The position numbers and the translations under genes are program-made. Shown one piece after another: positions 26,576 to 49,733 of a stretch of DNA of 64,000 bases; the first letter of the stretch is position 1; every line of letters starts with the position of its first letter. This stretch comes from Candidatus Rokuibacteriota bacterium. GTDB taxonomy: Bacteria; Methylomirabilota; Methylomirabilia; Rokubacteriales; CSP1-6. The stretch lies in assembly GCA_016193045.1 (NCBI GenBank), contig JACPSW010000059.1, forward strand, positions 49,383 through 113,382, in the 5' to 3' direction. The notes under the pieces are model-generated. The model did no database searches, was not told the origin of the DNA, and saw nothing but the letters and a program-made list of their open reading frames with translations.

Positions 26576-29089
26576 TCATCGCGCAACCGCGCTAGATGGT
26601 GGGAAATCTGGGAGAAGGTCACCTGCGCTCGTCTCACCCGCCAAATCATGGACTCCACTGCGCAGCTTCCTGAATACGGCAAAAGCCAGCGCGTACAAAC
26701 CCAGTGCGACCAGGATAGCGACGTTCAAACCGAACGCTATGCTGATTGGCACGCTCAGTAGACCACCAACGACGGTAAACAAGCCGTTCATCCCCCACGC
26801 CCAAGCGATTGCACCACGAGGCTGGTTTGCGATCGCTAGAATGCCCAGAGGGAACGGCATACCGAGGAGAAACCCTACAGGAAATATCATAACCCCCGAC
26901 GCGAGGATTCTACCGGTAAGAGGCAATCCGAGAACCAGACCGGATAGCCATGGATAGAGTATCACAAACGCAAGACCCACGGCGAGGACTCCCAGGAACG
27001 GTATCGCCCATCTGCGCCGACATTCAATCCCCAACATCTCCGACGACCCGCTGCCGATTCCCGCTGCAAGCAGCAATGTGAATATGACCGTCGAATACGT
27101 GTGCAGTGGGCTGCCGATCAGTTGCATGAATTTTTGTATGAAGACGAGCTCAAGAATAATGAACCCCGCACCCAGGCAAGAAAAGTACAAGAGCAACGGT
27201 ACAGCGCTCGTCCCCCTTTCTCTGCCAATCTTCGAGAATCGCAGAGGAACCAGAACAAACAGCAATACAAATACAGCAGAAGCGAATCCGGTAAAGAATA
27301 AGTGCACCCAATCCATCGGAATGACGCCTTTGATGAGTGATTGGTTCAGAACAGCTGCAGTCCCCACATCCAGATAGTTCCTTGCATCCGGGTCCAAGCG
27401 CTCGATCGTCTTTCGAAGCAATCCAAAATAGGGTCTGTCGTCCGTGCGCGGCGTGACGTGAACGGCCATCCGGTCGGCCAGCTCATCGGGAAAACCCCCG
27501 GAATAAAACTCCTGCGACAGGAACCTCTCCTTCGGCTCCAGCGGATTCTCAACAAGACTCAGACGATGGTCTTCATCAGCCTCAGGCGGCGCCAGGAACT
27601 TGTTCAGCGACGCAATTTCCGCGGCTGTCCATGGCTGATTCTTTACCAGCAGAGTGGGCAGCAGAGGTTCCAGTGGGTAGGCATAGACAGCAACGTGGCG
27701 TGCAAAATCGGTTCGTCCCATGCGCTTCCACGCCAGCGCAGCGGTCGTAATCATTCTCGGATATGCATAGTGATTAATGTGCAGTATGCCATTGGCGGTC
27801 AGCCGCGAGAAATACTCCTGATAAGCCTCGGCAGTCTGCAGATACACCGGCGCTAGGGCGCCCGTGCCCTGCGCAACGCTCGAGCTTGTGTGATTGCTAT
27901 AGATCTGAATGACGTCGTACTTGCGGTCGCTGTGGCGTAAGAAGCTTCGACCTTCACCAGCCTGAACGCGCACAGCCGGGTTGTGAAATATGTGGCCGAT
28001 ATACTTCGAGTACCGACCGGTCGCGAGTTCGACTACGGTCGGCACCAGCTCTACAGCATCGATATAGGTCGCACCGTACATCAGGGCGGCTTTTGTTTCC
28101 TGGCCGCCTGCGCTCCCAATTACCAAGACCCTGTGCCCCGCATCGCGTTTCAGGTAGTGCGACGCCAAAACGCCGATCTGCCAGAAGTGCTCAGTAATAC
28201 GGGATTTGTCGTGCTCGATATGTTCCCGAAGAGACTTCAGATCGCCGTCAAACTTATAGAAGTAACTCGTCTGATTACCGCCGTCGTACTGAATGGCCTT
28301 TCGATCACCGTACCGATGCCATGGCGTGGATATTTCAGGTGACCACGTTTCATCGATCACCTCGATCTTTGATATCGGATCCCAGCGAACGAGCTCGCGC
28401 CTGCCTTTTTCGACGGCGTCCTTCACCCTCCCCTGCTTGTCCATGTGCTGCACAAAGTCAATATAGTCTGGTGCTTTGACCATTGGCAGGGCGACGGCCA
28501 GGACCGCTAGAACACCAGCAGCGCGACTGCGGAATCGCGACTCTGTAAACAACGCCGCCGCCAGGAGTCCCAGTCCCGCCGCACACACAATAAGGCCGCC
28601 AGGGCCGAGTGTTGATATGAATGGAACGACGATCACACTCCCCAAGCCCGCGCCGATCAGATCCCAGAAATACAATCTTTGAATCCTCAGCGCATATTTT
28701 GAGAACGTTGCAATGAGTACGTAACCGGCCAGAAAGAATGGAAGAAGCAGAGCCACGTACAGAAGGGCGAACGATGCCACGGTGATGAACGGACGTCGGA
28801 CGATGCTCGTGTAGTCAAGCGGCAAGACGTTGATCAGTGGGATCACCAACGCAGTCGTCGCCGCAAATCCAACGCTTCCTGTAAAAAGAATCTCACTGAT
28901 CTCTCGATCTACCGGAATCGGGCGCAGGGTCGCCCACACTCCAGCCAGACCAAAGGCGAATACGGCGACTGTTACGACGAAATAGGCGATGTTAGGGGCC
29001 AGCATCACGTCAAACACACGCGTAAGCATGAGCTCAAGCACCAGCGTCGCAAGAGCAATCAACAGGATTCCGCACGAAAGCCTGCGCAT
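26576..29089 (-). CDS. Large polytopic membrane protein with a central spermidine/spermine-synthase-like (aminopropyltransferase-fold) domain.
   Basis: 837 aa. An N-terminal block of about 7 transmembrane helices is followed by a soluble domain with VLVIGSAGGQETKAALMYGATYIDAVELVP...DVIQIY (a SpeE-like class I methyltransferase fold), then a second multi-helix membrane block. Its GC content is markedly lower than that of its neighbours. Confidence 0.65.
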   Translation of the reverse strand: MRRLSCGILLIALATLVLELMLTRVFDVMLAPNIAYFVVTVAVFAFGLAGVWATLRPIPVDREISEILFTGSVGFAATTALVIPLINVLPLDYTSIVRRPFITVASFALLYVALLLPFFLAGYVLIATFSKYALRIQRLYFWDLIGAGLGSVIVVPFISTLGPGGLIVCAAGLGLLAAALFTESRFRSRAAGVLAVLAVALPMVKAPDYIDFVQHMDKQGRVKDAVEKGRRELVRWDPISKIEVIDETWSPEISTPWHRYGDRKAIQYDGGNQTSYFYKFDGDLKSLREHIEHDKSRITEHFWQIGVLASHYLKRDAGHRVLVIGSAGGQETKAALMYGATYIDAVELVPTVVELATGRYSKYIGHIFHNPAVRVQAGEGRSFLRHSDRKYDVIQIYSNHTSSSVAQGTGALAPVYLQTAEAYQEYFSRLTANGILHINHYAYPRMITTAALAWKRMGRTDFARHVAVYAYPLEPLLPTLLVKNQPWTAAEIASLNKFLAPPEADEDHRLSLVENPLEPKERFLSQEFYSGGFPDELADRMAVHVTPRTDDRPYFGLLRKTIERLDPDARNYLDVGTAAVLNQSLIKGVIPMDWVHLFFTGFASAVFVLLFVLVPLRFSKIGRERGTSAVPLLLYFSCLGAGFIILELVFIQKFMQLIGSPLHTYSTVIFTLLLAAGIGSGSSEMLGIECRRRWAIPFLGVLAVGLAFVILYPWLSGLVLGLPLTGRILASGVMIFPVGFLLGMPFPLGILAIANQPRGAIAWAWGMNGLFTVVGGLLSVPISIAFGLNVAILVALGLYALAFAVFRKLRSGVHDLAGETSAGDLLPDFPPSSAVAR

Positions 29090-29099
29090 TCTCCTGCTC

Positions 29100-29525
29100 C
29101 TAGAAGGTGTTTACCGCCCTCATCGCACAGAGACGAGCCTCGGTCGCTGACAGGACCCAGCCTCTAACGTTGACTACGCGGCCATGCAGGAAATCGTCAC
29201 GTTGCTGCTGGTGCACCAAGTCGCGGAGTTTTTCTATGTCAGTGTCCAGGAGCTCGGCACCACGGCCTGGCCACGTTGAACAAATCACACCAAGCAGCAA
29301 CTGCACGTTCGCCTCGCTGGGGACCTGCTTAAGGTATTCTCGTCCAACGATCGCGGCGCTTTCTTTACAGGCCAACACACCAGCGAGTTTCGAAGCGCCC
29401 GGATCGTGGACTCTGCTCCTACGCACGGCACCCCACGTGCCTAGTGGGCGGCAGAGACCAAGGGCCCCCACCCAAAGCATGAAAGTCAGGAAACGTCGTC
29501 TGAGGATGCTTGTAGACGGGCTCAT
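29100..29525 (-). CDS. Gluconate 2-dehydrogenase subunit-3-family small TAT-exported subunit, the partner of the GMC oxidoreductase.
   Basis: Carries the RRRFLTF twin-arginine signal at the N-terminus and is the small subunit typically encoded beside GMC flavoproteins. It overlaps the upstream GMC gene by 4 nt. Confidence 0.6.
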   Translation of the reverse strand: MSPSTSILRRRFLTFMLWVGALGLCRPLGTWGAVRRSRVHDPGASKLAGVLACKESAAIVGREYLKQVPSEANVQLLLGVICSTWPGRGAELLDTDIEKLRDLVHQQQRDDFLHGRVVNVRGWVLSATEARLCAMRAVNTF

Positions 29526-31102
29526 GTCATAAGCCTCTTTACGTGGTCGGCTAGTCTCAGTGAAAGGGCCACGATCGTAAGCGTCGGATTCGAGGCGCCG
29601 GACGTGGGGAAGACAGAGCTCCCGGCTATGAACAGATTCGAGATATCGTGCACCCGGCAGTTCTCATCAACGACCCCCTTCTTGGGGTCGCGGTGCATGC
29701 GAGTCGTTCCTATGTGGTGAAAACCAATCAACGGCTGAGATGGGCCATTCTCTTCGTCAAGAATGATTTTGACGCGTCCCAGGCCAGCCCGGCCGAATTC
29801 TTCGGCGATAAGCTCGGTCGCCCGTCTGATGGCGTGCTTGTACGCCGCTGTCAAGCCCCAATGCAAGACTACGCGGTTCTGGCCAAGCACATCTCGCTCG
29901 GTACTGAGCGTCACGCGGCTATGTGGATCCGGGACTTGTTCAATGCCGCAAAAGAGTTCTGCCATGCGAACCGGGGTCACCCCCTTGAAGACTCTTCCAT
30001 AGCCGAGCCTCGCGACATCATCGATGTCAGCAATGACGTTGCCTAGATGTTCGGAGAGATCGTCGGGCATAGAGGGCTTGCGCACAGCGTCGAAGAGAAA
30101 CTGAAGAGAGGCTATCCCTTTGGGTTGTATCGGCGCCAGATGTACCCGAAAATTCACAAGGTTGAAGCTACGCTGCGTCTCTCGGGTAGGCACGAGGGCG
30201 CCCTTGATCGCTGTCCGTCGTCGGCTTCCTGGAGGATTCTCGTGTCTCGGGGACGTGTAGGATTCGTATAGGCGAATGGGGAGGTAGGGATTCGAGAGCA
30301 GGAGAACGGCGGATTGTTGCCACGGGTGTTCCATGAAGAATCTTCCGACCAGGTCGTACTGGTTGCCGAGCCCGGCCCTTCGGACTTGATTGGACAAGAG
30401 TAACAAGCGGGCGTTCTCGATGACGCCCGTTGCGAGGATGAAGATCTTCGCTGCGACCCAATATCTATTGCCTTGCAGGCTGGCCACGCGGACCCGTGTG
30501 ACGGTTCTGCCGTTGGGGGGCGTCTCGATGTTGATCACGTTGGCGTAGAGGTTGAGGGTGATATTGCCCGCTCGCACGATTTCATCGCGGTAAACCTTGC
30601 CAAACCGGGTGGGCGGACTCAGCTGAATGATCTTGGTGATCACGCGGTCGCCATTGAAGTGGAAGCGGGGGGCACTTGGAGTCTCCCAAGCGTCCGCGTC
30701 ATAGAGAAAGGGCCCCAACTCGCAGATTGATTGAGCGCGCTCGTAAAACGGATCGAGATGATTCTTATTGAAAGGCCAACCGCTGTACGGAATCCAGTCG
30801 CGTGACTCGAAGTCGATTTCGTCCAGGGGTTGGCACCAACCTGTCCAGTGGTTGGTCGTACCACCGAAGTAACGGAGGCGGGCCACGTCCAGCGGCGGAT
30901 AGGGAAATCCCGTGTTCTCGCCGGCGTAAAGTGACTGCGTACCCTTCTCGAACTCGAGGCCTCCACTCTCGAGGAGGCAGACCCGGAACGGCTGGCCGAC
31001 GAACTGACGCGCCAGGGTAATTCCGGCCGCTCCGGCTCCGATGATGCAGACGTCGGTCTGGATGGTTTGGTCGCCTGGCACCGCGTGGGCATCAATGACC
31101 AA
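29522..31102 (-). CDS. GMC-family FAD-dependent oxidoreductase.
   Basis: N-terminal DVCIIGAGAAGITLA FAD-binding motif. The GMC family typically carries a C-terminal His/Asn active-site region (not checked here). Confidence 0.85.
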   Translation of the reverse strand: MVIDAHAVPGDQTIQTDVCIIGAGAAGITLARQFVGQPFRVCLLESGGLEFEKGTQSLYAGENTGFPYPPLDVARLRYFGGTTNHWTGWCQPLDEIDFESRDWIPYSGWPFNKNHLDPFYERAQSICELGPFLYDADAWETPSAPRFHFNGDRVITKIIQLSPPTRFGKVYRDEIVRAGNITLNLYANVINIETPPNGRTVTRVRVASLQGNRYWVAAKIFILATGVIENARLLLLSNQVRRAGLGNQYDLVGRFFMEHPWQQSAVLLLSNPYLPIRLYESYTSPRHENPPGSRRRTAIKGALVPTRETQRSFNLVNFRVHLAPIQPKGIASLQFLFDAVRKPSMPDDLSEHLGNVIADIDDVARLGYGRVFKGVTPVRMAELFCGIEQVPDPHSRVTLSTERDVLGQNRVVLHWGLTAAYKHAIRRATELIAEEFGRAGLGRVKIILDEENGPSQPLIGFHHIGTTRMHRDPKKGVVDENCRVHDISNLFIAGSSVFPTSGASNPTLTIVALSLRLADHVKRLMT

Positions 31103-31141
31103 GAGAGGTCCTCCTCAAGGCGTGGCGGCCCCGCACCGGCC

Positions 31142-32062
31142 TCATCGCCGAGCCCCCGAATCGGCGGAGGCGGCGTGGCGCACGTCCGGGCGGTCGCGGA
31201 CGGCCAGCATGGCTGCGACGAGCCGAATGAGATCGCGGTGATGCAGGAGGGGATCGTGGCCCACCCGGGCCCGAAACAGGAAGTTCCCCGGGCTGGTCTC
31301 CTCGGCGGGCACGCCGGCCGGAATGTCCAGGGGAATACCCCCCGCGCCGTCCAGCACCGCGCTCCGCTCCGGCGCGATCCACCGGTCGGGCTCGATCCGG
31401 ACGGTCAGGTAGAGGATGCTGCGGCGGCTGTCGGGCGGGACGCGCGGGCCCCCGGGTCGGTCGCTCCCGAGGCCGTGCGGTGTCTCGTCGACCCACGCCC
31501 CGTCGGCGCCGTTGAGGGCCACCTGCAGGGGGTGCGTCTGGGCGCTGGTCGCGAAGGCCGGGCACATCTCTCGCGCAGCCTCATGGGTGAAGCGGCAGAG
31601 CGCGTTGGTGCCGTGGTTGGCTCCGACAAGGCTGACCCACGTGCGCACGACCTCGGGATGAAGCTTGGCGGCGTACCACCGGCTGCTCACCGCCCCCATG
31701 CTGTGCGACACGATGTCGAGCCGTTGGGGCATTTCGCCCCGGTATCCGCCACCCTGGGCGGCGGCGTTCGCCCTGACGAGGAGCGCTGCCGCCGCCGGCG
31801 CGATCACCGAGGTCGCCGCCGGGATGTTGGCCATGGTGTTCGGGACAATGTCCACGGCGTGCAGGTATTCGCTCGGGTACCCGATGCCGACCAGATACCT
31901 GATGAGAGGTCGCCAGTCGGCCGAGGACAGCCCGTGACCGTGGACGAAAAGCACCGGCGTCCGCGCATAGTCGGCGGTCTCCGAGCGAACTGCCGAGCAT
32001 CCCGACGCGAGCCCGAGCAGCAGCGACATCGCCCACAGTCGCAAGGGCCGGCAGCGTTGCAT
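31142..32062 (-). CDS. Lipoprotein lipase/esterase of the alpha/beta-hydrolase fold (triacylglycerol-lipase-like).
   Basis: Start at MQRCRPLRLWAMSLLLGLASGC (lipobox L-A-S-G-C). Motifs include PVLFVHGHG, the nucleophile elbow HSMG, and VGANHGT. The start codon overlaps the upstream acyltransferase stop. Confidence 0.7.
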   Translation of the reverse strand: MQRCRPLRLWAMSLLLGLASGCSAVRSETADYARTPVLFVHGHGLSSADWRPLIRYLVGIGYPSEYLHAVDIVPNTMANIPAATSVIAPAAAALLVRANAAAQGGGYRGEMPQRLDIVSHSMGAVSSRWYAAKLHPEVVRTWVSLVGANHGTNALCRFTHEAAREMCPAFATSAQTHPLQVALNGADGAWVDETPHGLGSDRPGGPRVPPDSRRSILYLTVRIEPDRWIAPERSAVLDGAGGIPLDIPAGVPAEETSPGNFLFRARVGHDPLLHHRDLIRLVAAMLAVRDRPDVRHAASADSGARR

Positions 32063-32763
32063 CACATGGCACTCACGTGAAACGCATCGACGTTGCCCGT
32101 CGCCCCAGGCGCGCCGCGCCGGCGCAATGGTCGTGCCGGGTTGCCGACCACGATCGTGAACTCGGGCACCGGCTTGTTGACGACGGCACCCGCGCCGACG
32201 AGAGCGCCGCGACCCACGTCCTCCATCACCACGCAGTGGGCGCCGATCCAGCAGTCGTCGCCGATCGCGATGCGCTTCTTGCGGCCTCGCTGCAGGGCCA
32301 TCGGGATGTCGGTCCGGTCGATGTTGTGTTGCCGCGACCCGCTCAACAGCACCGAGTGCTCGCCCACGAGCGCGTAGTTGCCGAAGTCGCAGTGATGGAT
32401 GACGCAATACCGGTTGATGGTCACGTTGTCCCCGATGGAGACGTCGTGGTAGATGAAGACGGCACCGAGCTCGATGAGGACGTTCCGGCCACAGCGCGTG
32501 AGCGCGAAGCGATAGAACTCGGCGCGTACCACGACGCCGAAGACGTAGGGGATCAGGCTGAGAAGCTCGGAGACGGTGCGGAAGACGATGTCCGGGGGGA
32601 AGACCAGGTCCGCGGCCCGGCAGAGCATGGCGAGCGGCCACACGAAGGGCCAGGTCAAGGCCCCCACGACCGCGCGGGCGATGGTGAGCCACCGAGGTGG
32701 TCGAAACTGCAAGTAGTCGACGTCCGTGTATCGTCCGTGCTCGATTCGCGCCTCTCTTTGCAT
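32062..32763 (-). CDS. Hexapeptide-repeat (left-handed beta-helix) acyltransferase, of the WcaF / colanic-acid acetyltransferase type.
   Basis: The N-terminus is hydrophobic. Tandem [LIV]GxxxxI hexapeptide repeats are present (IGDNVTINRYCVI, IGDDCWIGAHCVV, VGAGAVVNKPV). Confidence 0.75.
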   Translation of the reverse strand: MQREARIEHGRYTDVDYLQFRPPRWLTIARAVVGALTWPFVWPLAMLCRAADLVFPPDIVFRTVSELLSLIPYVFGVVVRAEFYRFALTRCGRNVLIELGAVFIYHDVSIGDNVTINRYCVIHHCDFGNYALVGEHSVLLSGSRQHNIDRTDIPMALQRGRKKRIAIGDDCWIGAHCVVMEDVGRGALVGAGAVVNKPVPEFTIVVGNPARPLRRRGAPGATGNVDAFHVSAM

Positions 32764-32773
32764 GGCTATCCCC

Positions 32774-33526
32774 TCAACTCATCGTGCCGCCGCGTCCCGG
32801 GAACGTCCGCGCGCGCTCGACATCGAGCGCGATGGGGGCGGCCAGGTCGAACCACACCTGGACCATCGGTTCACCGGCGCGCTCGTACGGCTCGAAGCGT
32901 CCACCCAGCTGGTGGTAGAAGAGAAGCGCCGGCTTGTTCGGGGCGTCGACGACCGCCCGCATCCGGTCGACGCCCACGCGCTGGAGATAGGCCACGACGT
33001 GCGCAATGAGCGCTTCCCCGATCCGGAGAGCGGTCCGGCGCACGAAGTGCGGGGTCCGGTACTCGGGCAGCACCCCGATCGCGAGGACCTCTCCCAGCGG
33101 CTCCTGGCCAAGGTGGAGCTCGGCGCGCCGCGAGAACATGAGCCACACGGCCCTGAGCAGGCGCGGGACCAGGCGGGGAGCGCGGAGGACGGACAGCGCG
33201 ATCAGCCACGCCGCGTAGGCCCAGTGGCGCCGGATGGCCTGGCGGTGGAAGGTGATCGAGCGGTCCGTGTAGGCGACGAATCCGGCCGGCCGACCGTCCA
33301 CCTCGAAGAGCGCGGCCCGCATGAGACCGTCGCGCAGGAGGACGGTGTAGCAGAACCGTCGCAGAAAGAGTTCGCCGAGACGCGCCATCGGGCCCCACTC
33401 GAGGAGTACCTGGTGCAGGCGGGTGATGGTGGCCACATCCTCCCGCCGGGTGGGGTCGATCTCACGAAGCCGGTGCCCGACGGGAGGCTCCGCTCGCCGG
33501 TCCCGCGCGCCGACGCTCTGGATCAC
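32774..33526 (-). CDS. GNAT-family N-acyltransferase.
   Basis: Motif A-like LAIGVLPEYRTPHFVRRTAL and motif B-like AVVDAPNKPALLFYHQLGG are present. Sequence divergence is considerable. Confidence 0.5.
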   Translation of the reverse strand: MIQSVGARDRRAEPPVGHRLREIDPTRREDVATITRLHQVLLEWGPMARLGELFLRRFCYTVLLRDGLMRAALFEVDGRPAGFVAYTDRSITFHRQAIRRHWAYAAWLIALSVLRAPRLVPRLLRAVWLMFSRRAELHLGQEPLGEVLAIGVLPEYRTPHFVRRTALRIGEALIAHVVAYLQRVGVDRMRAVVDAPNKPALLFYHQLGGRFEPYERAGEPMVQVWFDLAAPIALDVERARTFPGRGGTMS

Positions 33527-34863
33527 GAGGCTCTCCTCATCTTCTTGAACCGCTCACCGTGCATCTTTTCGTCAACGATCAGCACCTTCTGGGGGATCTT
33601 GAATCCCGACAGCCTGTCCCGGCAAAAGATCCGCATCCGCCTCCTGAACTCGGGGAGCGTCTCCCCGGTGCTGAGGCTGACCTTGACCGCCACGATCTGT
33701 CCGGTGATGGGATTCGCTTCGGCACTAACGGTGACGTCCTTCACGCCCTCCATGCACAGGAGAACGCTCTCCACCTCCGCCGGGTAGACCTTTTCCCCGC
33801 CGACATTGATGATCTCGGATGGACGTCCGAGAATGCGGAGGTACTCCCCGTCCACTTCCACGGCGTCGCCCGTCGGGAACCAGCCATCGGGCGTGAACGG
33901 GCTCGGGGCGTTCAAATACCCCAGCATGGCCGACTGGGCCCGGATCTGGAGCATCCCATCGACGACACGCGTCTCGAATCCTTCCCCGCCCACCTTGACC
34001 CAGAGCGAGTCGGAGGATCTGGACTGCGAGCGCAGGATGCCGACTTCCGAGAGGCCGTAGGTCTGCAGCAAACGGATGCCAGGAAACAGCTGGCGGAACC
34101 GGGTCAGGGTGCTCTCCGGCATCACCTCGGTCCCGTACGTCACCAGCTCCAGGCTGGAGAGGTCGTGGTCCTTGTAGGCCTCGCTCGCCAGCAGGAGGTT
34201 GATGAACGTCGGGGAGGTAGGGAGCAGCTGGACCCGGTATTTCTCGATGGCTGCGCAGACCACCTCGGGCGAGCGGTCCTGGACCGTCACGATGCAGCCG
34301 GCGTTGGACAGGACGTACAGCAGCGTGTTCACGCCGCCGATGTGGTCGAAGAGCAGAAACGTCAGGGTGCGGAGCGCGTGCCGTGGGACCTTGAACTTCT
34401 CGAGAAGCGGGACGAAATCGTGGACCGCGGCCTTGCTCTTTCCGGTGGACCCGGACGAGAAGAGGACGAGCCCGGGATGCTGCGCGCTCCGCAACCTCGT
34501 GAACAGCTCGTGGCTCGGTCGGGCAGCCGTGTGCGCCGGGCGGGCCTGATCGTCGGCGCTCACGGAAACGATCGCCTCCACCTGGGCGATGGCCCGGAAC
34601 TCCGGCTTCTTCATCTCGACCGAGGAGGTCAGCGGGACGACGATGCATCCCCGCTCGACCAGGGCGAGGAGGAGCGCGATCGCGTTGGGCGAGAAGTCGC
34701 CTTCCAGGCTGACGACCGTGCCCGGAGCGGCGTCGGCGAGGGACCGGCCCCAGCGATCGACGGCGTCCGCCAGCCAGCCGTACGAGACGACCTGCTCGCG
34801 CCAGACGACCGCGTCCTTCGTGTGATTCGCGCGAAACCCGTCGAGCAAGAAGTCGATATGCAT
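33523..34863 (-). CDS. AMP-dependent synthetase/ligase (ANL superfamily), likely a fatty-acyl-AMP / acyl-ACP ligase.
   Basis: The AMP-binding motif LFSSGSTGKSKAAV, the YGLSE motif and the TGD hinge are present. A short C-terminal domain (446 aa total) and proximity to an ACP gene favour an acyl-AMP ligase role. Confidence 0.8.
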   Translation of the reverse strand: MHIDFLLDGFRANHTKDAVVWREQVVSYGWLADAVDRWGRSLADAAPGTVVSLEGDFSPNAIALLLALVERGCIVVPLTSSVEMKKPEFRAIAQVEAIVSVSADDQARPAHTAARPSHELFTRLRSAQHPGLVLFSSGSTGKSKAAVHDFVPLLEKFKVPRHALRTLTFLLFDHIGGVNTLLYVLSNAGCIVTVQDRSPEVVCAAIEKYRVQLLPTSPTFINLLLASEAYKDHDLSSLELVTYGTEVMPESTLTRFRQLFPGIRLLQTYGLSEVGILRSQSRSSDSLWVKVGGEGFETRVVDGMLQIRAQSAMLGYLNAPSPFTPDGWFPTGDAVEVDGEYLRILGRPSEIINVGGEKVYPAEVESVLLCMEGVKDVTVSAEANPITGQIVAVKVSLSTGETLPEFRRRMRIFCRDRLSGFKIPQKVLIVDEKMHGERFKKMRRAS

Positions 34864-36605
34864 CAGCCACCGCGCCGGGCATGAACGAGTTCGCCCGGCG
34901 ATCCCGCGACCGCGGCCCCGTCAACCCGATACAGTCGGACGTCGGGCGCAGCCAGGACCGCCACCAGCCATGGGGGGACGTCCCCGCGCTCGAGCTGCTG
35001 GAAGAACGGCCGGTTGCCATCCGAGGGATGGGTCGGGTCGAACAGGCCAGGGAAGAAGATGACGTAGGCCACCCCGTACGAGGCGACGAGCCGCCTGACC
35101 TGGTCGTCCGTCCACACCCGCCGGGTATACGCCGCTTGCGTGAGGCCCAGCACGGGCCGATCCAGCACGGCTCCCAGCATCTGGGCTTCGTTGCCGAGGA
35201 GCGGGCTGGCCGTCGTGACCCGTTGGCGCAGGAACAGGACCAGGGGCTCGCCAGCGAGAGGGCCCTCCAGGGCGTCCCGTATCGTGCGGTAGGGATTGGC
35301 CTGGGTGAGCGGGCGCCAGTGGTGGTGGAACACGTTGACCTGCCCTGCCAGGAGAGTGACCACGGCGGCCCCCACCCACAGCCGGGCCGCCCACGCATGC
35401 CGCGAGCGGCTCGGCGTGAAGCGGATCACCCTCACCCCATCCGCGAGGCAGAGGAGTCCGAACGGGATCAGGGCCAGGAGGTAACGCGGGCTGATGTGTC
35501 CGGAGGCGTAATTCCGGGCCCCCTGGACCATGAGAATGATGCTGACGGCCATGTACGCCAGCGAGAGGGAGACATGAGTCTCCGCAAGGGCGGCCCGCAG
35601 GGCGGACCTGTCGATCTTGAGGCGACCGATCCAGCACACCCCACCAACAAGACCGGCCGCCGCGACGATGACGAACGCGACCTCCGGCGCGCTCCCGCCC
35701 AGAAGTCCGGACTTCGTGAATCCGAAGATCCCTCCTAACGCCCACCCGACAGTCCGGTGTAACTCCATCAGCGGGTCCCCGGGGAGCATGGTGCCCGTCA
35801 GTTTTCCCGTCAGCACGAGATTGCGAAGGAACAGGGCCACCACGAACACGGACGCCGGGCCAGTGGCGAGAATCAGGGCGCGGGCGGACTGCCAGTCTCG
35901 CTGGCGGATGACCCGCACCAGGAAAAAGAGCCCCAGGCTGATGACATAGTAGACCCCCTGGTAGCGGACGGTGAAGGCCAGCCCGGCCACTGTCCCCGCC
36001 GCTGCCAGCCAGAGGTCGCGCCGCCCGGGATCCCGTTCCCCCTGCATGGCGCACCTCAGGCTGACCAGCGTCAGCAGAGTGAAGGGCATCTCGCTCATAC
36101 AGCCGAGCACGTTGAACCAGGCGAACGGAGAACCGAGCCAGACCGCGCTGACTGCGAACGAGCGCAGGGGCGTATGGCCTGCGGTCCTGAGGATGTCGTA
36201 GATGACCAGCGCGACGGCCCCGAACGAGAGCAGCGAGACCAGGAAGGCGGCATAGGGCGGATCGAGACCCAGCCGGCTGCCCAGCGCGATGAGCAGCGGA
36301 TAGCCCGGCGGGAAGACCGTCTGCGGGGCGGGCACCCCGCCCAGGCGGTATTGCTCTTCGTGCCAGACGATACTGGTGGCGAAGCCGTGGCCGCTAGCCA
36401 GGTTCTTGGCGGCGTTCACGAAAAACGCGCCGTCGATGCCGATGAACGAGCGATCGTAGAGCGCGGTGAGGCCGCCCAGCGACGCGCCGAGCAGGAGCGC
36501 CCACAGCGCGAGCGCCAGCCCGGCCGAGCCTGCGGCCGCTCTCCCGGCCGCGCGCCCTTCCCCGGCCTCACTCGCGATACCGTCCAGCCGGACGTCGGGC
36601 CACAT
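34863..36605 (-). CDS. GT-C fold membrane glycosyltransferase of the ArnT/PMT family (GT39/GT83-like), dependent on a polyprenyl-phosphate sugar donor.
   Basis: Start at MWPDVRLDG (36605), giving 580 aa. The shadow N-terminal extension of the ORF listed at 34863..37208 is excluded. It has about 13 transmembrane helices, a PMT_2-like loop and a C-terminal soluble domain. Confidence 0.7.
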   Translation of the reverse strand: MWPDVRLDGIASEAGEGRAAGRAAAGSAGLALALWALLLGASLGGLTALYDRSFIGIDGAFFVNAAKNLASGHGFATSIVWHEEQYRLGGVPAPQTVFPPGYPLLIALGSRLGLDPPYAAFLVSLLSFGAVALVIYDILRTAGHTPLRSFAVSAVWLGSPFAWFNVLGCMSEMPFTLLTLVSLRCAMQGERDPGRRDLWLAAAGTVAGLAFTVRYQGVYYVISLGLFFLVRVIRQRDWQSARALILATGPASVFVVALFLRNLVLTGKLTGTMLPGDPLMELHRTVGWALGGIFGFTKSGLLGGSAPEVAFVIVAAAGLVGGVCWIGRLKIDRSALRAALAETHVSLSLAYMAVSIILMVQGARNYASGHISPRYLLALIPFGLLCLADGVRVIRFTPSRSRHAWAARLWVGAAVVTLLAGQVNVFHHHWRPLTQANPYRTIRDALEGPLAGEPLVLFLRQRVTTASPLLGNEAQMLGAVLDRPVLGLTQAAYTRRVWTDDQVRRLVASYGVAYVIFFPGLFDPTHPSDGNRPFFQQLERGDVPPWLVAVLAAPDVRLYRVDGAAVAGSPGELVHARRGG

Positions 36606-37303
36606 CACACGCCCCCGAGAAACAGGCACTGCCCGGTGATAAAGCCGCTTGTTCTCAGCAGATAGAAGTCGATCACGTTGGCGACGTCGGCCGCGGTTCC
36701 CAGCCGGGGGATGGCCTGTCTCGACACCAGGCGGTCGATCTTTTCCTTGGGCACCGAGCGGATCAGGTCCGTCTCGATGGCCACCGGCCCCACGGCGTTC
36801 ACGGTGATGCCGAAGGGGGCTAGTTCCCTGGCCAGGACTCCGGTCAGCGAGAGGACTGCTGCTTTGGAGGCGACGTAGATCGCCTCCCCCTCCAGCTTCA
36901 GCGGCACCGCCACCGTGGTGAGATTGACGATACGGCCATACGCGTTCGTCTTCATGAGCTTCGCCGCCTCGCGGCAGAAGAGAAATGTTCCAACGACGTT
37001 GGTGTTGAGGACGGCGTTCACCGTGGAGAGAGGGGTGAGCAGCGAGTGGTTCATCGAGCCGATGCCCGCGTTGTTGATGAGGTGGTCCAGCCGTCCGTAT
37101 TTCTTCCGCACATCCGTGAAGATCCGCCTCGCCGCCTGTTCGTCGGAGACGTCCGCGACGTAGTGCTGGTAGCCGTCGAGACTCCAATCGACGTCGCCCC
37201 GACTGCATCCGACCACGCGGTGGCCGCAGCGGACGTAGTGTTCGGCGAGATACCTGCCGATTCCCTTTCGCGTGCCGGTGATCAGGGTGATGGGGGTGTC
37301 CAT
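36605..37303 (-). CDS. Short-chain dehydrogenase/reductase of the 3-oxoacyl-ACP reductase (FabG)-like type.
   Basis: Start at MDTPITLITGTRKGIGRYLA (Rossmann TGxxxGIG). Motifs include NNAG and a YVASKAAV catalytic YxxxK. 232 aa. Confidence 0.85.
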   Translation of the reverse strand: MDTPITLITGTRKGIGRYLAEHYVRCGHRVVGCSRGDVDWSLDGYQHYVADVSDEQAARRIFTDVRKKYGRLDHLINNAGIGSMNHSLLTPLSTVNAVLNTNVVGTFLFCREAAKLMKTNAYGRIVNLTTVAVPLKLEGEAIYVASKAAVLSLTGVLARELAPFGITVNAVGPVAIETDLIRSVPKEKIDRLVSRQAIPRLGTAADVANVIDFYLLRTSGFITGQCLFLGGV

Positions 37304-37304
37304 C

Positions 37305-37601
37305 TCAGGCGGCGGCCCGGATGAGGCTGCCCGCGTAATCGGCCAGTGCGCCGACGGTGCGGTAGGGGCTCGCTCGCTGCGACAAGGCTCGCTCGTCGGC
37401 GAGACTGACGCTGACGCCCAACTCGTCTTCGATCGCCTGTTCCACGGCGACGACCAGCGTGACCAGCCCCAGCGAATCCAGCAAGCCGTCGCGGCCGAAG
37501 AGGGGCGTGTCGCCATCGAGGGCCGTGGGAAGCGGCACGCCGTTGTGCTCACCGAGCTCCTGAACAGCGTTGAGGATCAGGGATACGAGTTCTGGTTTCA
37601 T
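37305..37601 (-). CDS. Acyl carrier protein.
   Basis: 98 aa, acidic. The phosphopantetheine attachment motif GLDSLGLV is present with the conserved Ser. Confidence 0.8.
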   Translation of the reverse strand: MKPELVSLILNAVQELGEHNGVPLPTALDGDTPLFGRDGLLDSLGLVTLVVAVEQAIEDELGVSVSLADERALSQRASPYRTVGALADYAGSLIRAAA

Positions 37602-37613
37602 CAGGTGACCTCG

Positions 37614-38648
37614 TCAGGTGGAGGTGGCGCCGGGGAAGGCCCGCGACGTCGCGGCGGCCACGGGGAAGCGGGGTTCACGCACCGGGAGCTGCGACGCGCG
37701 GGCGGCGGCTTCGGCGTGCTGCTCGAGGGTGAGCACCGCGAATCGGGCGGTCAGGAGATCGACCGCCTCGCCAACCAGCTCGAGCTTCCTTCCAAGGGGG
37801 AGGTTCATGGCTGGGAAGAAGGCAAGATCGCGTGTATCGTCGCAGCCGAGAAAATCCAGCGGATGCAGAAGCAGCGACGGGTGGGTCGCAGTCCACCGGC
37901 AGAGGCTGAGAGCGGCGCGGAAGTAGAGCAGAGCCAGGGCCGGCGCCAGCGCGCTCAGGTAGAGGAGGTAGCTGACGTGGATCGGGACCCTGAATACGGG
38001 CATGGTCGTCACCGGGATCTCGATGATCTCGCCGGCGTCCGTCCGCAATCGGTACGGCCGGATCGGCCGCAACCCGTCCCGAAAGCTGCCGAAGAGCGCC
38101 CGGCGTTGCCGGATCTCCTCCCGGCTCATCCCGCTCGTCCTCAAGTAATAGGCCCGGGCCAGCGGCCCCAGAAAGGTGGGCAGGGTCGAGGCGTCATAGA
38201 GGTAGCCTCGCCGCACAAGCACCTGCACCACCGTCCGAGAGAGACTGAATCCCGGGCCGCGGAAGCCGCAGGGGATCCGTCCGGTGGCACGCTCGATGTG
38301 CTCTTCCGCCCGCTCGAGCTCGACCCCGATCTGCTGCTCGGAATACAGGTGCAGCCAGGGCTCGTGGTGGAAAGAGTGGTTGCCGATCTCGTGCCCAGCC
38401 GCCGCGATCGCGGACAGCAGCGGCCGATTCTCTGCCACCGCTGCATCCTGGCCGACGATGAACACGGTGATGGCGAGGTTTCGTGCGCCGAGAAAGTCGA
38501 GGACCCGAGGCACGACGAGGTCCAGGTAGGACGGAAACCGCTCCCACCCTGGCTCCCCGCGGGTCTTCATGTACGACCACTTGTTGTCAAGGTCGAGTGA
38601 CAAGCTCGCGATGGGCTTCCTGGTCGTCATGGTCGTCCTTGTCATCAA
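37614..38648 (-). CDS. Polysaccharide deacetylase (NodB homology domain, carbohydrate esterase family 4).
   Basis: The LSLDLDNKW (TFDD-like) motif and the HEIGNHSFHH His-His metal motif are present. 344 aa. Confidence 0.8.
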   Translation of the reverse strand: MMTRTTMTTRKPIASLSLDLDNKWSYMKTRGEPGWERFPSYLDLVVPRVLDFLGARNLAITVFIVGQDAAVAENRPLLSAIAAAGHEIGNHSFHHEPWLHLYSEQQIGVELERAEEHIERATGRIPCGFRGPGFSLSRTVVQVLVRRGYLYDASTLPTFLGPLARAYYLRTSGMSREEIRQRRALFGSFRDGLRPIRPYRLRTDAGEIIEIPVTTMPVFRVPIHVSYLLYLSALAPALALLYFRAALSLCRWTATHPSLLLHPLDFLGCDDTRDLAFFPAMNLPLGRKLELVGEAVDLLTARFAVLTLEQHAEAAARASQLPVREPRFPVAAATSRAFPGATST

Positions 38649-39661
38649 AAGGTCGGCGCGATCGGCACGGGAGCTCCGTTTTTCTCGAGCGATCGCTGAG
38701 CCGCCTCCAAGACCTTGACCACCCGCAATCCGTCTCGTCCGTCGCTGAGCGGTCGCCTCCGCTCACGGACGCAGTCGAGAAAGTGCTGGCATTCCAGCCG
38801 GAGTGGTTCGTCGACCTTGACATGGGGAATGATGATGTCGCCAAAACGGATCGTGATATACTCCGCGAACGTATTGTAGTCGGTCGTGTGCTCGGCGCTC
38901 TTGTCATAGATCCTGAGTTTTTCGGTGCCCTCTAGATCGTCGAACACGACCATCTTCTTGCTGCCCACGATGGTCAGCTTGCGAATCTTATGCGGGTCCA
39001 ACCAGCTGATATGGATGTGCGCCATCGATCGTTGATTGAAATTGAGGGTCACGAAGACGACATCTTCGATCCCCGGCTGAAGATAGGATTGTCCGCGCGC
39101 CGTCACATCCGTTGGATCGAGGCCGAGCAAGTGGAGGATGACGGATATGTCGTGGGGGGCGAAGCTCCACAGCGCGTTCTCGTCCCCACGCACCGTGCCG
39201 AGATTCACCCGCTGGTTATACACGTAATAGATGTCGCCGAGCTCGTTCGAATCGACCATCTGCTTGATGCGGCCTACGACCGGGTGATACAGGAGCAGGT
39301 GACCGACCATGAGGATCCGACGTTCGTCCTCGGCGATCTTGATCAGTTCCTGCGCCTGAATGGCGAAGAGCACGAAAGGCTTCTCAACGTAGACATCCTT
39401 GCCGGCCCTCAAAGCGGCCTTGCAAAGGGCGTAGTGCGTGGACGCGGGGGTGGCGATCACGATGGCGTCGAGGTCCGGGTCCTTCAAGAGGTCCTCGAAA
39501 CGACTGGTGGTGCGGGTTCCCGGCACGAGCCCCCGCATCTGGTCGAGCTTTCGCTGATCGAGATCGCAGATGAACTTGAGCGAACAGTCGGGGATCTGAA
39601 AGTAATTGCGGGCCAGATTCTTCCCCCAACCTCCGACTCCGGCCACGGCGACCTGGACCAT
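38645..39661 (-). CDS. Gfo/Idh/MocA-family oxidoreductase, WbpB/WlbA-like (UDP-GlcNAcA 3-dehydrogenase candidate).
   Basis: Start at MVQVAVAGVGGWGKNLA (39661). The EKP motif (YVEKPFV) is present. It sits in a wbpB/wecB/wbpE/wbpD-like block. Confidence 0.7.
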   Translation of the reverse strand: MVQVAVAGVGGWGKNLARNYFQIPDCSLKFICDLDQRKLDQMRGLVPGTRTTSRFEDLLKDPDLDAIVIATPASTHYALCKAALRAGKDVYVEKPFVLFAIQAQELIKIAEDERRILMVGHLLLYHPVVGRIKQMVDSNELGDIYYVYNQRVNLGTVRGDENALWSFAPHDISVILHLLGLDPTDVTARGQSYLQPGIEDVVFVTLNFNQRSMAHIHISWLDPHKIRKLTIVGSKKMVVFDDLEGTEKLRIYDKSAEHTTDYNTFAEYITIRFGDIIIPHVKVDEPLRLECQHFLDCVRERRRPLSDGRDGLRVVKVLEAAQRSLEKNGAPVPIAPTF

Positions 39662-39683
39662 CGGCTTCTCCCTCGGGCCGTCC

Positions 39684-40850
39684 TCAGAGGAGAGCATGTG
39701 AGGCCCGTTCACGCGGGGCGATGAAGGCCAAGACCGCATCGCGGATCCGGTCGGCCGCGTGGCCGTCGCCGAACGCGGCAGCCGCGGCAGCCGAGAAATC
39801 AGCCTGTCCTGCTGGAGCGCGGGCTTCCCATGCCGATACGGCCGCACGGATCGCCTCGGGTTCGATTCCGGCGAGAATGTTGCCACCCCCCTGGAGCGTT
39901 TCGACCCATTCGGTCTCTTCCCGCAGCGTGATACAGGGGCAGCCCAAGAAGAACGCCTCCTTCTGAAGACCTCCGGAGTCCGTGAGGAGCATCCTGGCAT
40001 GGCCGACGAGGGAGAGGGTGTCGAGGTATCCAGCGGGCGGAATGAGTTGCAGGCGCGGATGCGGTGACCACGCGGGGAACCGGGACTGGAGCACCTTCGC
40101 GGTGCGCGGATGGAGGGGAAAGACGAGCCGGGCCGCCGTTGCCGCGATTTCGTTGAGCGCTGACAGCACCTTCCGGAGTCGCTTCTCGTCGTCGGTGTTT
40201 TCCGCCCGATGGATCGTCACCACCCCGTAGCGGCGAGGCTCCAGGGCCAGTCGATCGAGAATGCTCGACCGCTGCGCGGCCAGCCTACGGTTGAACAGTA
40301 CGGCGTCGTACATGATGTCGCCAGTCAGGACCGCACGCTCGGCGAGCCCCTCCTTTTCCAGATTCGCAATCGCGGTTGGAGTGGGCGCCAGCAGGAGGTC
40401 CGACACGTGGTCCGCGACGACCCGGTTGATTTCCTCCGGCATCCGCCGGTTGAAGCTACGGAGGCCGGCTTCGACGTGAGCGACCGGGATGTGGAGTTTC
40501 GCCGCCGACAGCGTGGCGGCGAGGGTGGAGTTGGTGTCGCCGTACGTCACCACGATGTCGGGGCGACCGTTCAGGAGCGCCCCTTCGATTCTGGCGAGCA
40601 TCTGGTCGGTTTGGCTCCCGTGGCTCCCCGAGCCCACACCGAGATTGAACGTGGCGGGTGGAATCGCGAGCTCGTCGAAGAACACGTCGGACATGCCCGC
40701 ATCGTAGTGCTGACCGGTGTGGACGATGATGTGGTCAATGGGCGGACCGCCACGGCGTGTGAAATGCTCGAAGGAGCGCAAGAGGGGCGCGATCTTGATG
40801 AACTGGGGTCGTGCCCCGACAATGCTGACCAGCTTAATGGCCGTCGTCAT
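39684..40850 (-). CDS. wecB: UDP-N-acetylglucosamine 2-epimerase, non-hydrolysing (WecB/WbpI-like).
   Basis: Full-length WecB pattern is present: VGARPQFIKIAPL, HTGQHYD, and DSGGLQKEA. Confidence 0.9.
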   Translation of the reverse strand: MTTAIKLVSIVGARPQFIKIAPLLRSFEHFTRRGGPPIDHIIVHTGQHYDAGMSDVFFDELAIPPATFNLGVGSGSHGSQTDQMLARIEGALLNGRPDIVVTYGDTNSTLAATLSAAKLHIPVAHVEAGLRSFNRRMPEEINRVVADHVSDLLLAPTPTAIANLEKEGLAERAVLTGDIMYDAVLFNRRLAAQRSSILDRLALEPRRYGVVTIHRAENTDDEKRLRKVLSALNEIAATAARLVFPLHPRTAKVLQSRFPAWSPHPRLQLIPPAGYLDTLSLVGHARMLLTDSGGLQKEAFFLGCPCITLREETEWVETLQGGGNILAGIEPEAIRAAVSAWEARAPAGQADFSAAAAAAFGDGHAADRIRDAVLAFIAPRERASHALL

Positions 40851-42039: not shown

Positions 42040-42047
42040 CCGTTCTC

Positions 42048-42650
42048 TCACGTTGGGACGACTTCGGAGACAGTGAGGCCCTTCTTCCGATAGCTGCGAC
42101 GGCAGGCGGCGCAACTCGTCGTCTCGTCCCCATCGTTCGCGATCCCCAGTCCGAGCTTGACACCGCAGGAGCACATCCACCCCCGCAACCGGGCCGGGTT
42201 GCCGTAGACCATCGCGTAGTCCGGAACATCCCGCGTGACGACCGCCCCGGCACCGACGAAGGAATAGCGCCCCAGCGTGGCGCCGCAGATCAGCGTCGCA
42301 TTGGCGCCGATCGTGGCGCCCCGCCGGACGAGCGTGGGCTGGTATTCGTTCTTCCGAGGCACGTGGCTGCGCGGGTTTTCCACGTTGGTGAACACCGACG
42401 ACGGCCCGCAGAACACGTCGTCCTCGAGGATGACTCTCTCGTACACCGAGACATTGTTCTGGATCTTGACGTTGTTACCGATGACGCAGCCCGACCCCAC
42501 GAACACGTTCTGACCGAGGCTGCAGTGTTCGCCGATGACTGCGCCCGTCATGATGTGGCAGAAATGCCAGATCTTCGTGCCCTTCCCGACCGAACAGGGC
42601 TCATCGATGAGCGCCGAGTCGTGGGCAAAATAGCCGCTGCCTTCCTTCAT
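42048..42650 (-). CDS. Hexapeptide-repeat N-acyltransferase, WbpD/WlbB-like, with an unusual C-terminal Cys cluster.
   Basis: Start at [17 protein letters not shown]. Left-handed beta-helix repeats are present. The C-terminal tail (WMCSCG...CAACRR) adds four Cys residues not typical of WbpD. Confidence 0.7.
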   Translation of the reverse strand: MKEGSGYFAHDSALIDEPCSVGKGTKIWHFCHIMTGAVIGEHCSLGQNVFVGSGCVIGNNVKIQNNVSVYERVILEDDVFCGPSSVFTNVENPRSHVPRKNEYQPTLVRRGATIGANATLICGATLGRYSFVGAGAVVTRDVPDYAMVYGNPARLRGWMCSCGVKLGLGIANDGDETTSCAACRRSYRKKGLTVSEVVPT

Positions 42651-46220: not shown

Positions 46221-46239
46221 CCCCTCTGCACCAGCTCCG

Positions 46240-47559: not shown

Positions 47560-47668
47560 GCGCTCCGCTTGGTCAGCAGGGACCAGGCGGTCTGGACCAG
47601 GACAGCGCCAACGCCGCAGAGCGGGAGGTCCTCCACCTTCGCCTCACCGCGTTGCGAGAGAAACTGTT

Positions 47669-49726: not shown

Positions 49727-49733
49727 CGGCTGG

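Follow-up and report, generated by a model that had tools for sequence, protein, structure and literature searches.

An acyl carrier protein, reductase and ligase trio in a polysaccharide locus of a Candidatus Rokuibacteriota bacterium, and its probable part in amino-sugar acylation

Within a 64,000-nucleotide stretch of a Candidatus Rokuibacteriota genome (assembly GCA_016193045.1, contig JACPSW010000059.1, positions 49,383 to 113,382; hereafter the window), a polysaccharide locus was found to carry a cassette encoding a dedicated acyl carrier protein (ACP), a short-chain dehydrogenase/reductase (SDR) and an ANL-family ligase, together with acyltransferases and a deacetylase of carbohydrate esterase family 4 (CE4). 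This cassette probably loads a small acid onto its private carrier protein and attaches that acid to an amino sugar. The general claim that an amino sugar is decorated here with a carrier-borne acyl group is modestly favoured, with each single step held less firmly than the whole. A previous sequence-only reading of the window had proposed that an acyl group borne by a private ACP is placed on an amino sugar, and this proved to be the best reading, since the ACP, SDR and ligase behave as a unit and the acyltransferases and CE4 deacetylase lie by an amino-sugar pathway. The observation on which that proposal rested was confirmed and its interpretation as a whole was partly supported: the cassette extends a known mode of surface decoration, and a new lipid anchor was not supported.

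Eight coupled genes and a conserved carrier trio

Profile comparisons were made with Pfam and NCBIfam on the open reading frames (ORFs) of the window, and scores are given against the gathering score or the family cut-off; the scan of genes for domains covered positions 14598-54910. The eight genes listed by the sequence-only reading, from the CE4 deacetylase down to a lipoprotein lipase, were all recovered in place with the domains ascribed to them, on the minus strand, as are all window features below unless marked otherwise. Their description as co-directional and tightly coupled also held, with junctions of -4 to +12 nt from the CE4 gene to the lipase gene. From the upstream WecB gene to the lipase gene the junctions were -4 to +22 nt and no promoter-like site was found in 29000-47800, which together fits a single operon. 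The G+C content of the window is about 0.56-0.71, and a 15-kb stretch of it was also present on a Logan contig. The GNAT and ACP sequences match Candidatus Rokubacteria proteins at NCBI with complete identity.

The ACP (98 aa, 37305-37601) belongs to a divergent subfamily, scoring 17.4 bits with the Pfam PP-binding profile (PF00550) against a gathering score of 20.8. A sequence search of the PDB gave only matches at E of 0.5 or worse. Its identity as a carrier was nevertheless maintained despite the sub-threshold profile score, because Ser43, within the DSL-type motif LLDSLG, is invariant in 33 homologues and because the AlphaFold model (pLDDT 81) shows a small helical-bundle carrier fold. Ser43 aligns with Ser36 of Escherichia coli AcpP, and helix II of the model begins at this residue; the conserved serine in a carrier fold on which the sequence-only reading had relied was thus found. 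The SDR (232 aa, 36605-37303; adh_short, E=9e-41) had FabG families as its top NCBIfam matches and scored 151 bits with the FabG equivalog (cut-off 296). Its Asn-Thr/Ser-Tyr-Lys tetrad is kept across 77 homologues, with Thr or Ser at position 138, and an arginine of the NADPH type follows strand 2; the positions of the E. coli FabG ACP-docking residues Arg129 and Arg172 are not conserved. By these features it is a classical SDR predicted to work like a ketoreductase, not a FabG equivalog.

The ligase (446 aa, 33523-34863) is a clear ANL-family enzyme and a predicted carboxylic acid:ACP ligase. Its AMP-binding (PF00501, 117 bits, E=1e-33) and AMP-binding_C (PF13193, 34 bits) domains both scored above threshold, and the motifs SSGSTGKSK, YGLSE, TGD and GRxSExINVGGEKVYPAEVE and a C-terminal lysine were present in the alignment. 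The top NCBIfam match was a long-chain-fatty-acid-CoA ligase subfamily (145 bits, cut-off 476), the amino-acid adenylation model reached 83 bits of 317 and DltA was not among the 25 best families; the nearest solved relatives were 4-chlorobenzoate, malonyl, FadD13, feruloyl and MenE ligases. The ligase has an invariant A4 motif, FLLFDHIGG. An assignment of the substrate from this motif was dropped, as the alignment register varies with the template. When the pocket of 4-chlorobenzoate ligase was roughly projected onto the alignment, small residues were obtained, but this was judged too unreliable and was not used. Membership of a PEP-CTERM/exosortase system was also rejected, as neither the ligase (73 of 592 bits) nor the deacetylase, whose best NCBIfam match was an XrtA-system deacetylase (58 of 276 bits), is a member of the exosortase-associated families.

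The cassette is more than a chance neighbourhood. A profile search with the ligase recovered more than 463 metagenome loci, the best 80 all at least 62% identical, and the cassette recurs at 40-85% identity in loci of other phyla, its named sources being Rokubacteria, Acidobacteriota, Desulfobacterales and a Leptolyngbyaceae cyanobacterium. Of the 47 loci with enough upstream sequence, 41 had the ACP and SDR genes immediately before the ligase gene; the gene for a GNAT-fold acyltransferase followed the ligase within 3 kb in 25 of 49 loci, with a hexapeptide acyltransferase gene conserved beside it in 23 of 49. Homologues of the GNAT protein formed 159 clusters, every one from metagenomes or metagenome-assembled genomes, and the same gene set was seen in all six GNAT-homologue loci with enough flank. 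The conserved order was CE4-(GT2)-ACP-SDR-(GT-C or 139-168-aa protein)-ligase-GNAT-hexapeptide-(small EamA)-lipase, where GT2 is a family 2 glycosyltransferase, GT-C an ArnT/PMT-like glycosyltransferase and brackets mark variable members. The usual neighbours of this set were genes for a Gfo/Idh/MocA protein, a DegT aminotransferase, a second, NeuD/WbpD-like hexapeptide enzyme and a PRK07233-type flavoprotein.

The trio of ACP, SDR and ligase was encountered in several settings. In the setting of this window (context A) it is accompanied by the GNAT protein and a WcaF-like hexapeptide enzyme, the CE4 deacetylase and amino-sugar genes. In about 12-15 loci without sugar genes (context B; locus L043, 8843-16066, and also L034, L041-L048, L054, L062, L071 and others), the next four genes encode a 399-aa protein of no assigned family that has an N-terminal anchor, a protein with the MprF C-terminal domain (LPG_synthase_C), a polyketide synthase (PKS)-type dehydratase and a DltB-like membrane-bound O-acyltransferase (MBOAT; 150 bits), with FadB/thiolase genes and rpoD/dnaG as neighbours. 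This arrangement has the look of a Dlt-type system for acylation across the membrane with a non-amino acyl group. A DltD-like identity of the 399-aa protein, guessed from its size and N-terminal anchor, was set aside, no match having been obtained in Pfam, NCBIfam or the PDB. In a third setting (context C; L092, GCA_039591255.1, and L093, GCA_039584595.1), the trio precedes a GT2, a CE4 deacetylase and a FemAB/Acetyltransf_6 protein; two PMT_2 GT-C genes and a further GT2 gene lie beside these, and a divergent Gfo/DegT/CE4/flavoprotein/GT2 set is found upstream. In cultured organisms, ligases of 53% identity were found on plasmids of the Bacillus cereus group and of Bradyrhizobium. Plasmid pS05J of Bradyrhizobium elkanii (L094, 12001-22168) encodes the ligase, an SDR, an ACP, a type I PKS, a hydrolase and a phosphopantetheinyl transferase (PPTase), and plasmid pBT62A of Bacillus thuringiensis, of the B. 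cereus group (L095, 9042-13353), carries, ahead of the ligase gene, an alpha/beta hydrolase gene, one for a hypothetical protein and one for an ACP of 41% identity, without an SDR gene; DDE73_RS28465 and RS28470 are its ligase and ACP pair.

That the ACP, ligase and SDR work as one unit is supported by their occurrence together even at loci without sugar genes. As the SDR accompanies the ACP and ligase in no fewer than four unrelated contexts, it is assigned to the ACP rather than to the sugar pathway, and the tethered acyl group is its most likely substrate. A role for the SDR and flavoprotein as a DprE1/DprE2-like epimerase pair on a lipid-linked sugar was rejected for the SDR on the same ground, since it follows the ACP and ligase into loci devoid of sugar genes. 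A PKS-type dehydratase comes after the trio in context B, which is consistent with the SDR being a true ketoreductase and with passage through a 3-hydroxyacyl-ACP; a beta-hydroxyacyl intermediate is accordingly plausible.

At some loci (L004, 8133-8639; L009, 8118-8621; L090, 11349-11768; L085), a small soluble protein of 139-168 aa without an assigned family is encoded between SDR and ligase, in the position that the GT-C gene takes in Rokubacteria. Its sequence pattern is faintly like a GNAT core, and the 168-aa protein of L004 was absent when looked for in the window.

Acyltransferases and the acid on the carrier

The GNAT-fold protein (250 aa, 32774-33526; Acetyltransf_1, E=2.9e-6) is proposed to be an N-acyltransferase with acyl-ACP as its donor. 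Its structural model (pLDDT 83) has the canonical NAT/RimI-like fold with an additional amphipathic two-helix insertion at residues 93-135, which may let the enzyme act at the membrane. No match was returned by a sequence search of the PDB or by tblastn against plasmids. A canonical GNAT enzyme that takes its donor from a carrier protein is seen in SbzI with its carrier SbzG (PDB 8zt3, 8zt4); this pair belongs to secondary metabolism (altemicidin biosynthesis), and its likeness to the window protein is at the level of the fold only, at 18-24% identity. The sequence-only reading had drawn an analogy with OlsB, which was not borne out: in the structure comparison the closest relatives of the GNAT protein were not OlsB, LuxI-type enzymes or N-acyl amino acid synthases, and no special likeness to these was seen. 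Beside the GNAT gene in L026 (18369-19397, minus strand), L090 (15339-16397) and five more context A loci, a stand-alone MprF-type membrane domain (LPG_synthase_TM) is encoded, a possible alternative flippase where an ArnE/F-like protein is missing.

The hexapeptide acyltransferase (233 aa, 32062-32763; Hexapep, E=1.5e-11) is of the WcaF/WbbJ/NeuD type. Its NCBIfam scores were 64 bits for TIGR03308, 58 for NeuD and 55 for the WcaF family, it also matched the WbbJ and Vat acetyltransferases, and LpxA gave 30 bits of 226. It is probably, judging from these family matches, an acetyl-CoA-dependent O- or N-acetyltransferase, and the LpxA/LpxD analogy previously drawn for it was not upheld. The last gene of the cassette encodes an exported alpha/beta-hydrolase lipoprotein (306 aa, 31142-32062; Lipase_2, E=2e-5; lipobox LGLASGC) resembling a class 2 lipase or thioesterase. 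A signal peptide was present in 20 of 20 distinct homologues examined and the lipobox cysteine in most of them; the gene is conserved inside the cassette, at times between those for the hexapeptide enzyme and the GNAT protein. As the protein is exported and acts outside the cytoplasm, it cannot act on the cytoplasmic ACP and is not an ACP thioesterase.

The nature of the acid bears on whether the product is a glycolipid, as the sequence-only reading had suggested. A long (hydroxy)fatty acyl chain would then be carried on the private ACP and moved by LpxA/LpxD-like or OlsB-like enzymes, giving a glycolipid, lipoglycan or lipid anchor. Consistent with this are the long-chain subfamily that heads the matches of the ligase, the FabG-like character of the SDR, the PGAP name of the 53%-identical Bacillus and Bradyrhizobium homologues ('fatty acid--CoA ligase family protein') and the position of the Bradyrhizobium homologue ahead of a type I PKS; the sequence also sets no limit on chain length. 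Against it, no ketosynthase, FabH, FabZ or enoyl reductase domain and no other long-chain marker was found among the genes scanned, a saturated fatty acyl-ACP would offer the SDR no substrate, the solved ligases closest to that of the window are aryl and short-acid enzymes, its own scores fall far under the cut-offs of the named families, and the hexapeptide enzyme is WcaF/NeuD-like. A long-chain product was therefore considered quite unlikely.

It was also possible that the ligase loads an amino acid, perhaps a beta-hydroxy one, onto a DltC-like carrier, from which the GNAT protein would aminoacylate an amine or hydroxyl of the sugar in the manner of the Dlt and Alm systems. The JGI annotation of many members of the carrier family as DltC would agree with this, as would the partners of the trio elsewhere (the DltB-like MBOAT, the MprF C-terminal domain and FemAB/Acetyltransf_6) and the precedent of AlmEFG on lipopolysaccharide (PMC4278540). 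The A4 motif of the ligase can be taken either way: Asp173 falls at the amino-binding position with the 4-chlorobenzoate ligase template, but with the 4-coumarate ligase template His174 falls on the canonical histidine. The ligase as a whole scored higher with acyl-CoA ligase models than with amino-acid adenylation, and the obligate FabG-like SDR and the PKS dehydratase of context B better fit beta-oxo/beta-hydroxy-acyl chemistry. Aminoacylation was on this evidence held to be unlikely.

Finally, the trio might make a separate product, such as a small lipid or polyketide-like metabolite, and merely be embedded in the locus, with the GNAT and hexapeptide proteins as ordinary acetyl-CoA-dependent sugar acetyltransferases. 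This would account for the occurrence of the trio without sugar genes in context B, for the Bradyrhizobium ligase that feeds a PKS, and for the acetyl-CoA enzymes among the nearest structures of the GNAT protein. However, mere co-location is unlikely because the GNAT family was found only beside the trio, which was present at all GNAT-family loci with flanks. Furthermore, different phyla share the order CE4-(GT2)-ACP-SDR-ligase-GNAT-hexapeptide, in which stop and start codons overlap, and in two lineages a GT-C or GT2 gene is inserted inside the trio or directly beside it. A separate product was consequently regarded as very unlikely, and transfer of an ACP-borne acyl group to an amino sugar remains the preferred reading.

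A proposed Arn-like lipid-carrier route and acylation mechanism

The GT-C and CE4 proteins are best read as belonging with a GT2 enzyme encoded upstream (392-aa ORF, 45042-46220; Glycos_transf_2, E=1e-32) in an Arn/Gtr-type lipid-carrier side route, a connection missed by the sequence-only reading. The GT2 protein consists of a GT-A domain followed by transmembrane (TM) helices at residues 285-303 and 344-362. A GT-A domain with two C-terminal TM helices is the defining architecture of the polyprenyl-phosphate GT2 class. Its top NCBIfam matches, most of them polyprenyl-phosphate glycosyltransferases, included PgfS, PpgS, ArnC, AglJ and a dolichyl-phosphate hexose transferase, all under their equivalog cut-offs, with PgaC interleaved among them and covering the N-terminal third of the protein only. 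By this architecture it is proposed to be a polyprenyl-phosphate sugar synthase of the ArnC/GtrB/PpgS type. In L002 and L003 the GT2 gene stands directly between those for the CE4 deacetylase and the ACP.

The CE4 deacetylase (338-344 aa, 37614-38630 or 38648; Polysacc_deac_1, E=2e-17) has no signal peptide and is cytoplasmic; it has an invariant Asp15, His85 and His89, which correspond to the metal and catalytic positions of the CE4 family. The GT-C protein (580 aa, 34863-36605) scored 32.3 bits with PMT_2 (E=1.4e-7; gathering score 26.1) and also matched the LA_3751/LA_3752 family; it has at least six strong TM segments and a C-terminal soluble domain, and GT-C genes were found in 14 related loci. 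In L002, L003, L008 and L075 the gene after that of the hexapeptide enzyme encodes a small EamA protein that matches ArnF and ArnE. Scores with the Arn families were all below cut-off, at 58 of 529 bits for ArnC, 15 of 382 for ArnD and 53 of 99 for ArnF.

Directly upstream of the CE4 gene lie genes for a Gfo/Idh/MocA 3-dehydrogenase (38645-39661), a WecB 2-epimerase (39684-40850; 318 bits, above the equivalog cut-off), a DegT aminotransferase (ORF 40834-42180) and the second hexapeptide enzyme, a NeuD/WbpD-like N-acetyltransferase (42048-42689), all assigned with Pfam and NCBIfam; the Gfo/DegT/hexapeptide set recurs beside the cassette in related loci. Further upstream is the gene for a FAD oxidoreductase of the amine-oxidase/CrtI superfamily (42647-44251; Amino_oxidase, E=2e-25), which passes the NCBIfam 'hypothetical protein' equivalog PRK07233 (NF005560, 457 bits, cut-off 252). 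This flavoprotein is present in 13 related loci and consistently linked to a CE4 deacetylase and a polyprenyl-phosphate-type GT2 (the window, L002, L003, L006, L090 and L092); its role is accounted for neither by amino-sugar acylation nor by the alternatives considered above.

From the gene content, domain folds, catalytic residues of the ACP, SDR and CE4 deacetylase, tight coupling and conserved synteny, we infer the chemical steps and their order, and the nature of the acid and of the acceptor sugar, as follows. The Gfo, DegT, hexapeptide and WecB genes would build a UDP-(di)acetamido sugar, which the GT2 enzyme would move from UDP to undecaprenyl phosphate. The cytoplasmic CE4 enzyme would then strip one N-acetyl group and free an amine, as ArnD, NodB and LpxC do in their own pathways. 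Meanwhile, the ligase would adenylate a small carboxylic acid and load it onto the phosphopantetheine arm of the dedicated ACP, where the SDR would tailor the tethered group, most likely by reducing a beta-keto to a beta-hydroxy group (for example acetoacetyl to 3-hydroxybutyryl). The GNAT protein would transfer the ACP-borne acyl group to the amine of the amino sugar, and the WcaF-like hexapeptide enzyme may add an O-acetyl group. After flipping of the lipid-linked sugar, the GT-C enzyme would transfer it, on the periplasmic side, onto a Wzx/Wzy-made polymer or lipopolysaccharide, and the exported lipoprotein hydrolase may edit the product.

Several observations weigh against this scheme. In this window eight genes separate the GT2 gene from that of the ACP, and the Arn-like route is incomplete, since an ArnE/F-like flippase was looked for in the window and found to be absent. 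The CE4 protein is not a member of the ArnD family (15.5 of 382 bits, E=0.0076), the ligase falls under the cut-off of all NCBIfam families and its invariant FLLFDHIGG motif fits both alignment registers, so that Asp173 may sit at the alpha-amino-binding position. A PPTase gene was sought in the window and none was found. The GNAT protein, with acetyl-CoA enzymes as its nearest structures, could be a plain acetyltransferase. The LLDS motif of the ACP and its best, weak NCBIfam match (E=0.0025) resemble DltC, and the partners of the trio in other contexts, namely the DltB-like MBOAT, the MprF C-terminal domain and FemAB, are families known for aminoacyl transfer.

A broader proposal is put forward tentatively and, taken as a whole, is rather unlikely: that a portable trio, in at least four phyla, feeds one small beta-oxo/beta-hydroxy-acyl group to at least three classes of envelope acyltransferase (GNAT; FemAB/Acetyltransf_6; DltB-like MBOAT with an MprF-C-like protein) and also stands ahead of a PKS, and that in this window the N-acetyl group on an undecaprenyl-phosphate-linked amino sugar is swapped for the ACP-borne acyl group before periplasmic transfer by the GT-C enzyme. 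To our knowledge, such an acetyl-to-acyl swap on a lipid carrier has not been described before.

The surrounding polysaccharide locus begins at about 13.9 kb and continues to the end of the window, with the majority of its genes on the minus strand, and encodes a Wzx flippase, a Wzy polymerase, two family 4 glycosyltransferases, two GT2 enzymes, a UDP-sugar dehydrogenase, several epimerases and, within the polysaccharide operon, a heparinase II/III-like protein (47669-50041). A second WecB-type UDP-GlcNAc 2-epimerase (302 bits) is encoded at 54903-55904. Directly downstream of the lipase gene, a segment of lower G+C content (0.56-0.58; 26576-31102) carries genes for a GMC oxidoreductase and a protein of 141 aa, as well as for a multi-pass membrane protein of 837 aa whose central domain is weakly spermidine-synthase-like. 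The gene for the 837-aa protein also adjoins the cassette in the Rokubacteria loci L005, L010 and L011. A 132-aa ORF (21345-21743) is an almost residue-for-residue copy of the N-terminal part of a secreted 470-aa RCC1-repeat/Big_2 protein encoded two genes away (23032-24444) and is probably a truncated paralogue of it; an RCC1-repeat protein of similar kind is encoded close to the cassette in L006. A c-di-GMP-I-GGC riboswitch aptamer (RF03167, 70.5 bits, gathering score 59) is present at 11916-11996 on the plus strand. It overlaps the first listed start of a 648-aa ORF (11937-13883) that lies just beyond the polysaccharide locus, and the true start of this ORF is therefore probably further downstream.

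Relation to known systems and significance

The presence of a dedicated ACP with its own loading enzyme in a glycan locus had been called unusual by the sequence-only reading. The arrangement is indeed uncommon, but it has a precedent in the O-antigen locus of Vibrio cholerae O1, where a private carrier (RfbK), an ANL ligase (RfbL, 471 aa) and tailoring enzymes make the 2,4-dihydroxybutanoyl group that N-acylates perosamine (PMC3441752, PMC12208996). By published description, not by sequence, the window resembles this module in having a carrier and an ANL ligase in a glycan locus; unlike the window, V. cholerae O1 has no GT2/GT-C lipid-carrier route, its sugar being acylated within an ABC-transporter-dependent homopolymer. 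The V. cholerae module (RfbK-RfbO, or WbeK-WbeO, VC0248-VC0252) also has a dehydrogenase and a hexapeptide acetyltransferase; its tailoring enzymes are of other families, and it is not known to include a GNAT or a CE4 protein.

Carrier-dependent surface decoration is also known from AlmEFG, which glycylates V. cholerae lipid A (PMC4278540), and from DltABCD, which D-alanylates teichoic acids; in both, an ANL ligase charges a small phosphopantetheinylated carrier with a small acyl group, and the carrier serves as donor to an envelope acyltransferase (PMC4278540; PMC9338922). As in Dlt, the window carrier has an LLDS motif, and the trio of context B sits with a DltB-like MBOAT. Unlike the window, the Alm and Dlt systems load amino acids, have no SDR and use an LpxM-type enzyme or an MBOAT as acyltransferase; the window itself has a ligase outside the DltA family, a GNAT protein as acyltransferase and no MBOAT.

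In the Arn scheme, a GT2 enzyme transfers an N-acylated amino sugar from UDP to undecaprenyl phosphate, de-N-acylation takes place at the cytoplasmic face, and flipping by EamA/SMR-type proteins is followed by GT-C transfer (PMC4402001). Like Arn (ArnB, C, A, D, T, E and F), the window has a GT2, a deacetylase and a GT-C enzyme, and related loci have an ArnE/F-like protein; no window protein reaches an Arn family cut-off, and the flippase is absent from the window. Whereas the amine freed in the Arn pathway stays free, the ACP module and GNAT protein of the window suggest its re-acylation. The Francisella FlmF2/NaxD/FlmK and Bordetella LgmABC systems follow the same logic as Arn. Removal of one N-acetyl group by a CE4 enzyme and re-acylation of the amine from a dedicated ACP is known from Nod factor acylation, carried out by the deacetylase NodB, the acyltransferase NodA, the carrier NodF and the FabG-like reductase NodG. 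NodF is loaded via a ketosynthase route, and a long acyl chain is placed on a free chitooligosaccharide. In contrast, loading in the window would be by a ligase, there is no NodA homologue and the CE4 protein scored just 31 bits with the NodB model.

Given RfbK/RfbL, AlmEFG and Dlt, a private carrier with its ligase in a surface locus is not a new concept. What is new is the conserved trio with an obligate SDR and its reuse across phyla with several classes of acyltransferase. Its embedding in a GT2/CE4/GT-C lipid-carrier route, also new, suggests an acetyl-to-acyl swap. No description of the cassette was found in the literature on 3-hydroxybutanoyl O-antigens, on MBOAT with ACP, or on exopolysaccharides, and papers on Pelobacter and E. 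coli O-antigens had no bearing on it.

Carrier-dependent surface decoration has been known from a few pathogens, in the forms of D-alanylation, glycine on lipid A and tetronate on perosamine, whereas the trio represents a much larger, highly conserved and uncharacterised module family in abundant, uncultivated soil and sediment bacteria. Culturable models are offered by the ligase and ACP pairs on megaplasmids of the Bacillus cereus group and by the ligase upstream of a PKS on Bradyrhizobium plasmids. Identification of the acid would explain a recurrent surface modification in Rokubacteria, Acidobacteriota, Desulfobacterales and cyanobacteria, would give functions to the families of the GNAT protein, the PRK07233-type flavoprotein and the exported hydrolase, and might reveal a deacetylate-then-reacylate step on a lipid-linked sugar.

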